In this document: positions 263 to 21,661 of the stretch, in pieces
Position numbering within the stretch: the stretch's first letter is position 1
Layout: the number at the start of each line of letters is the position of its first letter
Assembly: GCF_001677475.2 (NCBI RefSeq)
Contig: NZ_CP015229.1
Reading direction: 5' to 3' (one strand)
From: Escherichia coli
GTDB taxonomy: Bacteria; Pseudomonadota; Gammaproteobacteria; Enterobacterales; Enterobacteriaceae
Length of the DNA stretch: 64,000 nucleotides
Program-made: the position numbers and the translations under genes
Notes under the pieces: model-generated
Databases searched by the model: none
What the model saw: the letters and a program-made list of their open reading frames with translations, nothing else
What the model was told of the DNA's origin: nothing

Positions 263-670
263 ATGGCATATGTTTATGGACTGGTAGATTCATTACAGGG
301 CACTGACATGGTGGGAATGGCGGGGGCAGGAGACAGAAAGGAATGTGTGTTCTTAGTTCAGGTATATGCACATGTGGGGAATACTGGAGCCTGGAAGCAG
401 GGGCGAAAGGTTTTTGGGGATAAATCGATCCCCAGAGGAACAGCAATTGCCACTTTTGTTAACGGAAAGTATCCCTCGAGGCAGAATGAGCATAAGCATG
501 CCGCTTTCTATCTGGAACAGGATAGTCAGTATATTTATGTTATGGACCAGTGGACAGGTAAAACCACGAAAGTCTCTGCACGCCCTATTTCCCGAAAAGG
601 TGGAATGCGCAGCGATGGAACATATCCTGATGCCAGTAATAATGCGGAAGCTTTTTATATTATTGAGTAG
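263..670 (+). CDS. Small Cys/His-containing hypothetical protein; candidate T6SS effector (amidase/peptidase-type)
   Basis: 135-aa ORF, no signal peptide, between tssC and hcp, followed by a signal-peptide protein; function not recognised. Confidence 0.35.
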   Translation: MAYVYGLVDSLQGTDMVGMAGAGDRKECVFLVQVYAHVGNTGAWKQGRKVFGDKSIPRGTAIATFVNGKYPSRQNEHKHAAFYLEQDSQYIYVMDQWTGKTTKVSARPISRKGGMRSDGTYPDASNNAEAFYIIE

Positions 671-682
671 AGGATAGATTCA

Positions 683-1135
683 ATGGGAACACGTTTTATT
701 TTTTCTCTGTTGTTGGGTTTTATGTTGTTTTATTCACCATTTGTTGCAGCGTGGGAAGTCAGTTGCCCCGTGTTTATCAATATAAAATCCTCAACAACAG
801 TACTGGAGCCAGATATATCTGCATCGTGGCAGAGATCTTCCCGCTATGAACCCCGTCTGTGGTTGGACGGGGTAGGGATGTCGCAGGGAAAACCTGAAAA
901 TCGGGTGGATCTAAAACCAGAGACAGAGACAATAAAGGGTGAAACCAGGCAAATATGGGATACCACAATGGCCAGTAATCAGAATAGTGAACGTTACTGG
1001 GTTTCCTGTATTTATAACCATGGACAGGTTTGGTTATCACAACCGGTCCCTGCATTGGCGACACAGTGCCAGGCATCTTCTTTGCCGGGGCAGCGGGTAC
1101 CAGGAGAGTCATCGGTATCTGTGACATGTAAATAG
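683..1135 (+). CDS. Secreted Cys-containing protein; candidate periplasmic immunity protein
   Basis: N-terminal hydrophobic signal peptide (MGTRFIFSLLLGFMLFYSPFVAAW...), several Cys; immediately downstream of 263..670. Confidence 0.35.
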   Translation: MGTRFIFSLLLGFMLFYSPFVAAWEVSCPVFINIKSSTTVLEPDISASWQRSSRYEPRLWLDGVGMSQGKPENRVDLKPETETIKGETRQIWDTTMASNQNSERYWVSCIYNHGQVWLSQPVPALATQCQASSLPGQRVPGESSVSVTCK

Positions 1136-1314
1136 AAGTAATACATTCATTTTGTGAATTAATGACGTGCCGGTATCTCATTACCGGAAATTATACAGCC
1201 TTCTATTCTTCTGAAATTAAGGAGAGGGGGGTCTGTACGGCCATGGTTTACCTGAATTCATATGCGAAGATAAACCAGGGATTATTTTAAGTAATTCTTA
1301 ATAAGGAAATGAAA

Positions 1315-1800
1315 ATGGCTTATGACATTTTTCTGAAAATTGACGGCATTGACGGCGAGTCAATGGATGACAAACATAAAAATGAAATTGAGGTGCTGAG
1401 CTGGCGCTGGAATATCCACCAGGAGTCCACCATGCACGCGGGTAGCGGTCTGGGATCCGGCAAAGTCTCCGTGACTAACCTGGAGTTTGAACATTACATC
1501 GATCGCGCTAGCCCGAACCTGTTCAAATACTGCGCCTCTGGTAAGCATATTCCAAAGTCCATCCTTGTCATGCGCAAAGCAGGCGGCAATCCGCTGGAAT
1601 ACCTCAAATATACCTTCACTGACCTGATTGTGGCTGTTGTTTCCCCCAGTGGTAGTAAGGAGGGTGAGATCGCCTCCCGCGAGAGAGTCGAACTATCTTT
1701 CAGCACCGTGAAGCAGGAATACGTGGTGCAGAACCAGCAGGGCGGCAGCGGCGGCACAATCACGGCAGGTTACGATTTCAAAGCTAACAAAGAAATTTAA
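1315..1800 (+). CDS. hcp: T6SS tube protein Hcp (TssD)
   Basis: Translation MAYDIFLKIDGIDGES... is a typical Hcp; RBS AAGGAA upstream of second ATG; strong terminator downstream. Confidence 0.92.
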   Translation: MAYDIFLKIDGIDGESMDDKHKNEIEVLSWRWNIHQESTMHAGSGLGSGKVSVTNLEFEHYIDRASPNLFKYCASGKHIPKSILVMRKAGGNPLEYLKYTFTDLIVAVVSPSGSKEGEIASRERVELSFSTVKQEYVVQNQQGGSGGTITAGYDFKANKEI

Positions 1801-1811
1801 GCAACATTTTC

Positions 1812-1844
1812 CCGGCCAGGTATATAGCCTGGCCGGTTTTTATT
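1812..1844 (+). terminator. Rho-independent terminator/attenuator after hcp
   Basis: Perfect 9-bp stem CCGGCCAGG/CCTGGCCGG followed by TTTTTATT. Confidence 0.6.
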
Positions 1845-1867
1845 ATTTGATTTTAAAGGAAATTACA

Positions 1868-19100: not shown

Positions 19101-20295
19101 CGGCTGCCTGGTGTTCAGCTATGACCGGAGCGGCTGGCTGACCGGGCGCACGGGTCAGATGTACGACCATGACCATTATTATTACGATAAAGCCGGAAAC
19201 CTGCTGAAGGATGAGTATCAGAGTGCGGTGATGGACAACCGCCTGCCGGGCTACGCGCGTGACAGCTACCGCTATAACGAATGGGGTGAACTGACAGAGC
19301 GGCGTGAGCAGCAACTGGCGTGGAACGCGCAGGGTCAGTTAACGCGGGTTATCAGCAGCAACAGCGAGACGCGGTATCAGTACGATGCGCTGGGCAGGCG
19401 CATCAGCAAGGCGACATATGGCCGCCATACGGACCAGAGGGAACAGCGGCGGACGACGTTTGTGTGGGAAGGATTCCGGCTGTTGCAGGAGACAACGTGG
19501 CAGGGAAAGCGGACGTACCTGTACGACGCGGAACAGCCATACACGCCGGTGGCGGCCATCACGGGGCGCGGAGAAAGCCGGAAAATCTGGTATTACCACA
19601 CGGACCTGACGGGCACGGTACAGGAGGTGACGGCGTCGGACGGGACGCTGGTGTGGGCGGGCTACCTGGCGGGATTTGGAGAAAACCGGGGCGACATCAG
19701 CAACAGCGGGGCGTACTTTGAGCAGCCGCTGCGGCTGCCGGGGCAGTATTATGATGAAGAGACGGGGCTGCACTATAATCTGTTCAGGTATTATGCGCCG
19801 GAGTGCGGGAGGTTTATCAGCCAGGACCCGATAGGGCTGGCGGGTGGATTAAACTTATACCAGTATGGGCCTAATCCGCTGGGCTGGATCGATCCGCTTG
19901 GATTAAGTGGCGAAGATGTCTTTATTCATTATACGGATAAAGAAGGTTTTGAACGTATAATGAACTCTGGAGTTATCGAACCAAATTCAAAAGGTAAAGT
20001 TTATATTAGTGATATATTGATGTCTCCCGATGATGTTATGAGAGATATTTTTATAGGTAATTCCAGACATGCAGGGCGTGGTGATTATGCTATTATATTT
20101 AAGGCTGACTCCGCGCAGATGAATAACATAATCAGGAGTTCTGAATTAGAATATATACATTCTGGTCGATTAAAACTTGGTGAAATACTTTATGCAAGTA
20201 AGAATCCGTACCACATAATATCCCACTTGCCTTATGAACAGAGATTAAAAATGATGCAGAACCAAGTAAAATCCAGAGGAGGTAAATGTGGTTGA
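16153..20295 (+). CDS. rhs: prePAAR/PAAR-Rhs polymorphic toxin with variable C-terminal toxin domain
   Basis: N-terminal [10 protein letters not shown] prePAAR motif and TM helices, PAAR-like region, long YD-repeat core, [27 protein letters not shown] boundary, then ~135-aa AT-rich C-terminal domain. Confidence 0.9.
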
Positions 20296-20623
20296 GCAAA
20301 AAAATAAGAATTTGTTGTTAAATCAAGGGGAAGTGGCGGCTTTAAAGAAAGCCATTATGTACCTGAAGTTTTCATGTGAAGAAACAGAATCTTTATTATA
20401 TGCGGGAAGTCCTCTTATTAACTCTGTATTCGCTAAACTATTAGATATTGATGATTTAGGACAGCAAGCAAAGGAGTTCTACAGTAAAAAGCATGCTCAA
20501 AATGAAAGATTTATTTTAGCAAAGCTGAAAAAATCGGAAGAGGAAGATGATATAATACTTAGTAAAGAGACAAGAGAGAAATTTTTTGAAGATTGTCTCT
20601 ACCCGTTTACTAAAAATGAATAA
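20288..20623 (+). CDS. Candidate Rhs immunity protein
   Basis: 111-aa acidic protein; start overlaps rhs stop, RBS AGGAGG; AT-rich like the rhs 3' end. Confidence 0.45.
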
Positions 20624-20630
20624 TGCCGAA

Positions 20631-20670
20631 AAAAGCCGGGAACAATATTAAATCTTCCCGGCTTTTTATT
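20631..20670. terminator. Bidirectional rho-independent terminator between immunity gene and symE-like gene
   Basis: Stem AAGCCGGGAA/TTCCCGGCTT flanked by T-runs on both strands. Confidence 0.5.
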
Positions 20671-20672
20671 AT

Positions 20673-20966
20673 TTAATTATCGTTCAGCATACTAAACATC
20701 CCGTCACGCATCCCCTTAACCGCCTGTTTGACCTGGTAAAGTTCCCTGCGCAGTTCCTGTACTTCGTTGTTATCCGCTAGCAGGATCAGGCAACCTTCCG
20801 AGATCTTCACGGTAACGCCCGTGCCGATCTCAAATCCCGCTTCTCTCAGCCATTTGGCGCTGATTTTGATCACCGGCGTGTCGCTGCGGTTGGGCAGATA
20901 GCCCACGGTACAGTGGCGCTGTGTTTTGGAAATGGTGACTTCTGGCGTAATATCGTGTTCAGCCAT
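20673..20966 (-). CDS. symE: SymE-like type I toxin (AbrB-fold)
   Basis: 97 aa; ...IKISAKWLREAGFEIGTGVTVKISEGCLILLA... closely resembles the SymE core. Confidence 0.7.
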   Translation of the reverse strand: MAEHDITPEVTISKTQRHCTVGYLPNRSDTPVIKISAKWLREAGFEIGTGVTVKISEGCLILLADNNEVQELRRELYQVKQAVKGMRDGMFSMLNDN

Positions 20967-21169
20967 GATTAACTACCTTGATTAGTTGCTTGTGGTGAGC
21001 GGTGATTAAGGGGGGGGCAGCCCCAGGGAAAGATCACATAACGTTGTTTTTTGCACTAAATAATTCGCACTATATATTCAATAATTGAGTAATTCCTTAT
21101 TACTCAAAACTGTTTTTCACAGCTTATATATAATCAAATACTCCTTACATAAATAAGGAGAACAAAATG

Positions 21170-21661
21170 GTACTTAAAAAATGATGGAGCATATTTCTAT
21201 TATCCCTGATTACAGACAAGCCTAGAAAGTGGAACATAATTTGTCAGATATTCTACTGTTGACTATTTGTGCCGTCATTTTCGGGGCTGAAGGATAGGAA
21301 GATATAGAGGATTTTGGAGAAACACATCTCGATTTTTTGAAGCAATATGGTCATTTTAAAAATGGCATCCCCGTTCACGATTCCATTGCCAGAGTTGGAT
21401 CCTGTATCAGTCCTGCAAAATTTTAACTGGATGCGTGACTGCCATTCCTCAAATGATAAAGACATTATCGCAATTGATGGAAAAACGCTCCGGCACTCTT
21501 ATGATAAGAGTCGCCGCAAGGGAGCGATTCATGTCATTAGTGCGTTCTCAACTATGCACAGTCTGAGCCTTGGGCAGATTAAGACAGATGAGAAATCCAA
21601 TGAGATTACAGTGACCGCGCGTCAGTCCTTGCGGAGGGCGTCTACCCAGCCCCTTCCCTAA
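21170..21661 (+). mobile_element. yafF: ISAs1-family (H-repeat-associated) transposase remnant, frameshifted and truncated (yafF-like pseudogene)
   Basis: Frames encode MEHISIIPDYRQA..., ...LSDILLLTICAVIFGAEG..., ...[47 protein letters not shown]..., matching the N-terminal third of H-repeat ORF-H across shifted frames. Confidence 0.65.

Follow-up and report, generated by a model that had tools for sequence, protein, structure and literature searches.

The 64,000-nucleotide stretch of Escherichia coli chromosome analyzed here (contig NZ_CP015229.1, assembly GCF_001677475.2; hereafter the window) carries the distal half of a type VI secretion system (T6SS) island similar to pathogenicity island 6 of Salmonella (SPI-6). 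The island is best described as a conserved T6SS scaffold with exchangeable AT-rich effector/immunity modules in five fixed slots, a reading to which we give a probability of about 0.85. The scaffold, identified by Pfam, NCBIfam and PDB searches, consists of tssC, hcp, tssJ, tssK, tssL, tssM, tagF, vgrG, eagR and the core of a Rhs gene. The slots lie between tssC and hcp (slot A), tssL and tssM (slot B), tssM and tagF (slot C), tagF and vgrG (slot D), and between the Rhs core and its downstream sequence (slot E); their contents are referred to as cassettes 1 to 5. A first-pass annotation of the window, made by eye, had proposed that AT-richer segments interrupt a GC-rich core and represent horizontally exchanged effector/immunity modules. 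All five AT-rich blocks do fall at junctions between core genes and share the strand of the core, and the exchange itself is borne out by the polymorphism of the slots among related strains and by mosaic tracts of identity, both described below.

Base composition was followed with sliding and 1-kb G+C (GC) profiles, with the GC of each gene overall and at third codon positions (GC3), and with a recursive likelihood-ratio segmentation of positions 1–26000, which took G+C counts as its only input and was blind to genes and to the coordinates drawn earlier. The profiles show four deep troughs within 1–22000, against a window average of 0.537. The segmentation delimited blocks at 5042–6066 (GC 0.397), 9948–11486 (0.391), 12273–13489 (0.351) and 19848–21485 (0.382), the edges of which lie no more than about 50 bp from those of the first-pass annotation, apart from the right-hand edge of the last block, where the difference is 85 bp. 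With slot boundaries placed at the homology breakpoints between strains, two-proportion tests against the adjoining core gave a GC of 0.400 versus 0.577 for slot B (5063–6030; z = −10.4), 0.394 versus 0.603 for slot C (9941–11475; z = −14.3), 0.351 versus 0.567 for slot D (12266–13448; z = −12.6) and 0.392 versus 0.570 for slot E (19911–21649; z = −13.5). Each of these four blocks is under the 1st percentile of same-sized windows across the remaining 42 kb (21650–64000). Pooled cargo and pooled core differ by roughly 18 points (0.394 versus 0.572).

The contrast persists at synonymous sites, with a pooled GC3 of 0.344 in the cargo, 0.646 in the core (a gap of 0.30) and 0.610 in the chromosomal flank. 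Gene by gene, the small open reading frames (ORFs) between core genes have GC 0.32–0.46 and GC3 0.29–0.43, and the apparatus genes have GC3 0.53–0.72. Synonymous codon use also separates pooled cargo from pooled core (chi2 = 668, 41 degrees of freedom, p ~ 1e-114), the cargo being enriched in AGA, ATA and TTA codons. The root mean square distance in relative synonymous codon usage is 0.36 from the core to the flank (yafV, ivy, fadE) and 0.87–0.89 from the cargo to both. Sliding-window GC and codon usage, the check proposed with the original observation, therefore uphold AT-richness for the segments at 5060–6040, 9950–11450, 12280–13450 and 19900–21400 (z from −10 to −14, with the blind segmentation in agreement), whereas the segment at 263–1300 is only mildly shifted. 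Regarding the scaffold, which had been called GC-rich throughout, the description fits tssL, tssM, tagF (0.65) and the Rhs core (0.60), but not hcp (0.498) or tssK (0.526). Within slot E, a symE gene (0.52) forms a local GC bump.

From its gene content, each AT-rich block is predicted to be an effector/immunity module. There are five adjacent effector/immunity gene pairs, overlapping by 4 nt in three cases and by 8 nt in one, and the start/stop overlaps within modules or with neighboring genes are of 1–8 nt. Hydrophobic N-terminal leaders or membrane-like stretches can be read off the translations of the ORFs at 683–1135, 5752–6039, 10152–10847 and 13041–13427. Two of the modules, cassettes 1 and 3, have homology to experimentally validated T6SS effectors. 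The cassette 1 effector matches PDB entry 6WIN, ‘Type 6 secretion amidase effector 2’ (Tae2), over its full length (E = 4e-32), and that of cassette 3 is closest to Serratia Ssp1 (4BI3). The tandem Rap1a immunity protein of cassette 3 has a 231-residue homologue that PGAP calls ‘Rap1a/Tai family immunity protein’; elsewhere Rap1a immunity is encoded by separate ORFs of 137 and 62 residues in some strains and by 261- or 269-residue versions in others.

The cassette 2 effector has no Pfam or NCBIfam match, and it belongs to a family of at least 323 homologue clusters in gamma- and betaproteobacteria, of about 220 residues, with an invariant Glu73 within a WIEVGGDP motif. Its AlphaFold2 (AF2) model (pLDDT 75) gave, in Foldseek, the T6SS muramidase Tse3, MltE and g-type (goose-type) lysozyme as best matches, which are weak (E 0.025–0.1, TM score 0.4–0.5). 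The modeled fold and the conserved residues suggest that this is likely an uncharacterised family of peptidoglycan glycosidase effectors. Homologues are found in Burkholderia, Rhodanobacter, Paracidovorax, Methylobacter, Atlantibacter and Yersinia, the E. coli protein being 55–60% identical to those of Burkholderia, Rhodanobacter or Methylobacter. In five of the six other hosts a partner gene of ~94–102 residues follows the effector gene on its 3′ side. The pair sometimes adjoins T6SS or Rhs genes in these hosts, and it is found either in a T6SS cluster of another type (Atlantibacter, between clpV and vgrG) or as an orphan pair. The immunity candidate of cassette 2 shares 4 nt with the end of the effector ORF and 1 nt with the beginning of tssM, and its homologue in strain Ec-U10 is annotated as DUF2645.

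In the cassette 4 effector, an alignment of 60 sequences shows H172, E173 and H176 to be invariant and D183-E184-Y185 near-invariant, consistent with the predicted HExxH metzincin-like assignment. Its AF2 model (pLDDT 93) has weak Foldseek matches to karilysin, matrix metalloproteinases (MMPs) and ADAM proteins (E ~ 7e-3, TM score 0.3–0.4). PDB sequence searches with the effectors of cassettes 2 and 4, whether as single sequences or as profiles, gave no significant match, the top one (E ~ 0.7) falling on the HExxH region of serralysins and MMPs. A word-indexed search for homologues of the cassette 4 effector recovered eight clusters, without the 244-residue alleles, and an exhaustive HMMER search recovered 189. 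The effector is 39% identical to a 244-residue protein found in the same slot of strain 2014C-3338, and the immunity candidate is 52% identical to the 123-residue partner of that protein, so the pair appears to be a divergent allele of the 244/123-residue pair that other strains carry at this position. It also resembles the 243-residue ‘Reprolysin_4/M64’ candidate effectors that were flagged bioinformatically in variable region 2 (VR2) of SPI-6 in Salmonella (PMC10469887).

The predicted effector of slot E is the C-terminal tip of the Rhs protein. The Rhs gene has a GC of 0.578 as a whole, with a composition switch exactly at the DPLGL motif (residues 1247–1251, nt 19891–19905), where GC drops from 0.602 to 0.346 and GC3 from 0.715 to 0.262; homology between strains stops at 19905–19918. 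The N-terminal part and core match Pfam prePAAR_I (E = 3e-24), PAAR_motif (E = 2.5e-16) and, in eight stretches, RHS_repeat, and a DcrB-family ORF lies upstream, near vgrG. In every feature that can be read from sequence, the protein corresponds to a class I prePAAR, EagR-dependent polymorphic toxin. Its tip is possibly a HYD1-type ADP-ribosyltransferase, with a below-threshold match to Pfam Tox-ART-HYD1 and an HYTD sequence that fits the H-Y-[DE] signature. Relatives of the tip, 52–80% identical, are short Rhs tips of Salmonella, Pseudomonas, Pectobacterium, Cronobacter and Photorhabdus. The overlapping ORF downstream had no family match in the Pfam and NCBIfam searches, and its immunity role is proposed from its position.

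A symE-family gene is placed between the Rhs immunity candidate and a remnant of an ISAs1 insertion sequence (IS). Copies with identities of up to 93% are present in 831 E. coli genomes, at up to eight places per genome. In E. coli D6 one of them (4045–4338 of that locus) comes directly after an orphan Rhs tip, which carries the annotation HYD1 ADP-ribosyltransferase, and a small ORF, next to ISEc1. We considered whether the tip and immunity candidate of the window are that same pair and rejected the idea, the HYTD signature being the sole likeness. An Rfam scan found nothing in 1–22000, including no SymR-type antisense RNA at the gathering score; its matches, all naRNA4/REP elements, lie further right.

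The distribution of the island was examined with megablast searches of 5,426 complete genomes of E. coli, complemented by exact-protein look-ups. The tssK–tssL core is present in 115 of them and tagF in 114, so that the island type occurs in ~2% of complete genomes; identical copies of the TssK protein were found by exact look-up on many E. coli contigs. The cargo is far more restricted: whole cassette 1 is found in 10 genomes, cassette 2 in 2, cassette 3 in 10, cassette 4 in 34 (all at ~87% identity) and the Rhs tip with its immunity candidate in none. The alignments against other E. coli islands break at 213–219 and 1143–1309 (slot A), 5057–5068 and 5982–6031 (B), 9928–9958 and 11472–11482 (C), 12258–12267 and 13153–13448 (D), and 19905–19918 and 21024–21650 (E), and these breakpoints coincide with the boundaries of the AT-rich blocks. 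On the left, tssC homology ends at ~213–219 in strains with other cargo. In related strains, the comparison of which had been proposed as a check of the original observation, these slots are empty or filled with different cargo: Tae4/Tai4 between tssC and hcp; Tlde1 with a 147-residue protein, or no cargo, between tssL and tssM; no cargo between tssM and tagF; and a glucosaminidase/Tgi2 (Tge2/Tgi2) pair alongside a metallopeptidase-like pair between tagF and vgrG. The alternative cargo genes in these E. coli slots are all AT-rich (GC 0.28–0.47).

The modules are also found in other positions in other genera. In a Citrobacter-like contig the Rap1a/Tae4 module occupies the tssL–tssM slot, and alleles of 233 and 244 residues stand in tandem; an Enterobacter genome has Rap1a/Tae4 in the tagF–vgrG slot. 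In a Salmonella contig, cassette 2, Rap1a/Tae4, Tge2/Tgi2 and a Tlde1-like gene form a bare array upstream of vgrG-eagR-rhs, adjoining an ISAs1-type transposase. The three loci show the same compositional contrast, with core GC 0.58–0.59 and cargo GC 0.36–0.42. Stacks of two or three modules are seen in the tagF–vgrG slot of other genera (loci L017, 10001–12506, and L018, 10001–14654). Such stacks suggest that modules accumulate as well as get replaced.

A 300-bp identity profile against other strains reveals how cassettes and core are combined. Against 2014C-3338, identity is 99–100% over 301–4800, from cassette 1 through most of tssL, 90–94% across most of tssM, 97–99.7% over 9301–11700 (tssM 3′ end, all of cassette 3 and the first part of tagF), and 88–95% further right. 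Against strain A20 it is 99.7–100% over 4801–6000 (the end of tssL and cassette 2) and over 7201–9000, and 88–97% elsewhere. The tssM gene is thus chimeric, its 7201–9000 part being 99.7–100% identical to A20, its 9301–9905 part 97–99% identical to 2014C-3338, and the rest 88–97% identical to either. High-identity tracts span a cassette together with the adjoining core, which indicates that cassettes arrive with pieces of core genes. None of the cassettes is bounded by direct or inverted repeats, and the window contains no tRNA that could serve as an integration site. Repeat-bounded mobile cassettes, with integron attC-like sites or transposon ends, were consequently rejected, and the ISAs1 remnant is the sole trace of a mobile element. 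The tracts of cassette plus core, with no bounding repeats and no tRNA, point to homologous recombination as the exchange route, the crossovers falling within the conserved flanks. VR1 and VR2 of SPI-6 likewise have no flanking mobile elements, which would equally imply homologous recombination there (PMC10469887).

In the mechanism that we propose, each slot holds a small, co-oriented and tightly packed effector/immunity module, presumably co-transcribed with the apparatus genes. The modules would come from a separate AT-rich, rare-codon-rich gene pool circulating among Enterobacteriaceae and could be replaced, lost, stacked or moved between slots, mainly through homologous recombination, with the conserved core genes on either side of a slot as the place of crossover. 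In the Rhs gene, crossovers would fall within the GC-rich core, as far as the DPxGL boundary.

Several observations weigh against this interpretation. Slot A (263–1300) has a GC of 0.440 versus 0.488 for hcp plus tssJ (z = −2.2), and a GC3 of 0.42–0.43 versus 0.53–0.61. The segmentation did not separate it, 1–2796 forming one block at 0.467; the shift is mild because neither hcp nor tssJ (0.485) is GC-rich, and cassette 1 is not identifiable from composition alone. The effectors of cassettes 2 and 4 are assigned from weak fold matches (E 0.007–0.1) and conserved motifs, and the Rhs tip scores 20.9 bits against Tox-ART-HYD1, under the 25-bit cut-off (E = 5.6e-4). The presence of modules in different slots in other genera means that flanking homology alone is insufficient. 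In addition, the apparatus may be inactive here. Comparison of full-frame translations shows that codon 240 of tssL (4462–4464) is an in-frame TGA, with CGA or CGG (Arg) in four other strains; it sits just upstream of the transmembrane (TM) helix and is directly followed by an ATG (TGAATG), so that the cytoplasmic DotU part of the 438-residue long-form TssL is cut off from the TM-OmpA part. Independent decay is seen in relatives: LHM10-1 has a tssL stop at codon 128, and A20 has IS21 inserted in hcp and a frameshift in tssM. The broken tssL and the IS insertions and frameshifts of related strains, the shortness of the ORFs, and immunity candidates without family assignment in cassettes 2, 4 and 5 would suit a reading of the troughs as non-coding spacers, decayed pseudogenes or chance fluctuations, which we consider virtually untenable. 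Each of the 10 cargo ORFs is intact. Significant family or PDB sequence matches exist for five of them, and a further two fall in conserved families whose catalytic-type residues are invariant. The bicistronic partner is retained in distant hosts, and the statistics rule out chance; this reading is refuted.

The meaning of the AT-richness is a separate matter. The scaffold could itself be the compositional outlier, the T6SS and Rhs core genes being GC-rich imports and the AT-rich blocks closer to the host norm. The GC of tssL, tssM, tagF and the Rhs core (0.58–0.65) is indeed above that of the chromosomal flank (0.54–0.55) and the ~51% usually quoted for E. coli, and the island type is restricted to about 2% of complete genomes. 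However, the cargo, at 0.35–0.41 (0.44 in slot A), is far under both references, slots B to E are extreme among same-sized windows of 21650–64000, and the core is near the flank in codon usage, with the cargo far from both. Both classes deviate, the cargo more, and the codon-usage distances largely refute this improbable explanation. A different possibility, to be held tentatively, is that AT-richness is a maintained property of toxin and immunity genes and not a passive mark of foreign origin; exchange would still occur, and composition would follow from the kind of gene. Its causes could be selection for H-NS binding (silencing or co-regulation), throttling of toxin translation by rare codons, or AT-biased mutation in accessory genes that are under weak selection, are often replaced and evade GC-biased conversion; SPI-6 is known to be silenced by H-NS. 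The enrichment of AGA, ATA and TTA is in line with a maintained property, as is the fact that every alternative cargo gene in each slot and strain examined has a GC of 0.28–0.49 (~50 genes).

The cassette 2 effector family offers a view across hosts. Its GC is below that of the flank in 7/7 hosts, with flanks of 44–69% GC, by 1.6–15 points, and follows the flank with a slope of 0.98 and an intercept of −0.08 (r = 0.89, n = 7 hosts), so that the family has drifted toward the composition of each host yet keeps its offset. This also weighs against taking composition simply as a donor signature, since a GC that tracks the host at a constant offset makes AT-richness alone no proof of an AT-rich donor. 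The cargo is AT-shifted relative to whichever genome holds it, a general behavior of accessory genes, which could derive from mutation bias where selection is weak, from evasion of GC-biased conversion or from selection for H-NS silencing. On the other hand, there are only seven points, all of one family, and their offsets are widely spread, between −0.016 (Rhodanobacter) and −0.15 (E. coli and Salmonella); the general trend of accessory genes toward AT-richness makes toxin-specific selection unneeded. A maintained offset is, moreover, compatible with exchangeable modules in fixed slots. The broader proposition, that T6SS cargo has an actively maintained host-relative offset (slope ~1, ~−8 points) and, separately, that cassette 2 represents a widespread lysozyme-like T6SS effector family outside Pfam and NCBIfam, appears somewhat more doubtful still; if true, the offset would imply selection on composition itself, through H-NS silencing and co-regulation or a rare-codon limit on toxin dosage.

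The phenomenon of exchangeable cargo in a conserved T6SS scaffold is already known from SPI-6, Vibrio cholerae and the AT-rich tips of Rhs genes. The Salmonella SPI-6 T6SS cluster carries effector/immunity modules in three variable regions, VR1–VR3 (Blondel et al. 2009, PMC2907695; PMC10469887). The gene order and the protein families are shared: tssC, a Tae2 or Tae4 module, hcp, tssJ, tssK, long-form tssL, a Tlde1-type slot, tssM, tagF, Tge2 and metallopeptidase-type modules, vgrG, eagR and prePAAR-Rhs. In both islands the modules are confined to variable regions amid conserved core genes, and VR1 and VR2 lack mobile-element signatures. Unlike SPI-6, the present island is found in E. coli, has five junction slots instead of three variable regions, and lacks the saf/pagN part, ending at the ISAs1 remnant by yafV. 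The cited SPI-6 paper contains no discussion of base composition, ‘GC content’ occurring 0 times (PMC2907695 / PMC10469887). A 2019 review sets the T6SS organization of Salmonella, Citrobacter and Enterobacter apart from that of E. coli T6SS1–3 (PMC6730261). In V. cholerae, the GC of effector modules averages ~9% below that of conserved T6SS genes (Unterweger et al. 2014, PMC3988814); these diverse low-GC effector and immunity regions were read by the authors as independent acquisitions, and their sets vary by strain. The present cluster is likewise broken by diverse, lower-GC effector/immunity regions, although the contrast is about twice as large (roughly 18 versus about 9 points), the five slots lie in one cluster, and the T6SS lineage and the effectors are others.

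Two of the cassettes have close counterparts elsewhere. As in the Ssp1/Rap1a system of Serratia marcescens, the cassette 3 effector corresponds to Ssp1 over its full length (E = 2e-57) and a Pfam Rap1a immunity gene adjoins it in a T6SS cluster; here, however, the immunity protein is one 231-residue polypeptide with two Rap1a domains, and the module is AT-rich (0.38–0.41) and occupies a slot that varies by genus. The classical E. coli Rhs element has a GC-rich core, an AT-rich core extension (‘tip’), a small downstream ORF and an H-repeat (ISAs1), a description that reportedly goes back to the Hill/Feulner-era literature and to Jackson et al. 2009. The same arrangement is observed in slot E, with a YD-repeat core at 0.60 up to PxxxxDPxGL, an abrupt change to a tip at 0.35, an overlapping small ORF at 0.32 and an ISAs1/H-repeat remnant downstream. 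Slot E differs in that its Rhs gene lies within a T6SS operon and comes with prePAAR and PAAR parts and the chaperone EagR, in a tip that is matchless among the E. coli genomes searched, and in a symE-family gene that separates the immunity gene from the IS remnant. What is new here is the particular cargo set of an SPI-6-like island carried by a minority of E. coli; less familiar are the host-relative AT offset and two effector families that neither Pfam nor NCBIfam covers (lysozyme-like in cassette 2, metzincin-like in cassette 4).

The features of the island and of the rest of the window are collected in the table. At its right end the island terminates at the ISAs1 remnant, with an ORF truncated at 104 residues, which abuts yafV and the yafV-ivy-fadE backbone. 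The fadE-yafJ flank is 95–99% identical to essentially every E. coli genome, the best being 98.4% and none reaching 99%, which indicates that the source strain is not closely represented among the complete genomes. This flank and the identical TssK proteins on E. coli chromosomes led us to reject other hosts that gene content and GC had first suggested, namely Serratia or Enterobacter and then Salmonella with its SPI-6. In Ec-U10, the related island and yafV are separated by a dkgB′-yafC-...-dnaQ-tRNA-Asp block. As this block lies between island and yafV in Ec-U10 and tRNA-Asp (aspV) is not in the window, the island is on different sides of the block in different strains, possibly from an ISEc1-associated rearrangement. 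The right-hand two thirds of the window (~30500–62100) contain a lateral-flagella (Flag-2) gene cluster. This part has its own AT-rich troughs at 28–29 kb and 60–61 kb (GC ~0.40–0.42).

Table. Features of the window, with strand where given and the evidence for each assignment; domains and families are database matches, and roles marked as predicted or candidate are proposals.
Feature	Coordinates	Strand	Evidence and composition
tssC 3′ end (sheath large subunit), left edge of slot A	1–212	+	aligns 96–99% to annotated tssC end of 2014C-3338, LHM10-1 and Ec-U10
Cassette 1 effector, Tae2-family peptidoglycan amidase (BPSL0067 family)	263–670	+	NCBIfam BPSL0067_fam E = 8e-50; GC 0.458, GC3 0.419
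Cassette 1 immunity, STY0301 family, hydrophobic N-terminal leader (Tai2-like)	683–1135	+	NCBIfam STY0301_fam E = 2.4e-18; GC 0.461
hcp (core)	1309–1800	+	Pfam T6SS_HCP E = 1e-38; GC 0.498
tssJ (core)	1847–2401	+	Pfam T6SS-SciN E = 7e-37; GC 0.485
tssK (core)	2405–3748	+	Pfam T6SS_VasE E = 4e-135; GC 0.526
tssL, long form (DotU, TM and OmpA domain)	3745–5061	+	Pfam DotU and OmpA on the two halves; GC 0.58
Cassette 2 effector, 228 aa, predicted lysozyme/lytic-transglycosylase-like fold	5069–5755	+	GC 0.41, GC3 0.32
Cassette 2 immunity candidate, 95 aa, two hydrophobic TM-like stretches, DUF2645-like	5752–6039	+	GC 0.37
tssM (core)	6039–9905	+	Pfam IcmF domains; GC 0.594
Cassette 3 immunity, single ORF, two tandem Rap1a domains, hydrophobic N-terminal leader	10152–10847	+	Pfam Rap1a E = 5e-23, two stretches; GC 0.379
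Cassette 3 effector, Tae4-family amidase nearest Serratia Ssp1	10844–11320	+	Pfam Tae4 E = 8e-16; PDB 4BI3 Ssp1 E = 2e-57; GC 0.405
tagF (conserved accessory gene)	11506–12276	+	Pfam TagF_N E = 5e-14; GC 0.649, GC3 0.724
Cassette 4 effector, 233 aa, predicted HExxH metzincin-like protein	12343–13044	+	GC 0.359, GC3 0.316
Cassette 4 immunity candidate, 128 aa, hydrophobic N-terminal leader	13041–13427	+	4-nt overlap with effector; GC 0.354
vgrG (core spike)	13452–15665	+	Pfam Phage_GPD, Phage_base_V, Gp5_trimer_C; GC 0.539
eagR (DcrB/DUF1795 chaperone for prePAAR Rhs)	15689–16132	+	Pfam DcrB E = 2e-34; GC 0.529
Rhs N-terminus (prePAAR, PAAR) and YD-repeat core, to DPLGL motif	16153–19905	+	Pfam prePAAR_I, PAAR_motif, RHS_repeat, RHS; GC 0.602, GC3 0.715
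Cassette 5 effector, predicted Rhs C-terminal toxin domain, 129 aa	19906–20295	+	GC 0.346, GC3 0.262
Cassette 5 immunity candidate, 111 aa	20288–20623	+	role from position; 8-nt overlap with Rhs stop; GC 0.321, GC3 0.286
symE-family type I toxin gene	20673–20966	−	Pfam SymE_toxin E = 8e-15; GC 0.52
ISAs1/ISEc1 (H-repeat) transposase gene remnant, island right end	21024–21661	+	85–87% to 5′ part of annotated ISAs1-family transposases of three strains
yafV, first chromosomal backbone gene past the island	21675–22454	−	96–99% to annotated yafV of all four comparison strains
naRNA4 (REP-derived elements), four loci	29633–29710, 30370–30441, 36931–37007, 52991–53067		Rfam; one locus on both strands
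REP-associated tyrosine transposase gene (rayT-like)	29810–30307		flanked by two naRNA4 loci
FlhA homologue	30519–32612	−	Flag-2 cluster
Sigma-54 activator	37135–38121		Flag-2 cluster
CadC/OmpR-like regulator gene	59801–60694		in the 60–61 kb trough
Lateral flagellin LafA	61063–62043		Flag-2 cluster

Effector/immunity modules can be found cheaply and accurately from the GC troughs that lie between conserved T6SS genes. In this window the cargo slots could be located by eye to within tens of bases, and the approach flagged two effector families that have no database annotation. The mosaic tracts, in turn, give a direct view of cassettes travelling with neighboring pieces of core genes. The toxic and protective activities predicted for the five modules would make this cargo set the determinant of which competitors the strain could kill or resist, if the broken tssL permits firing.

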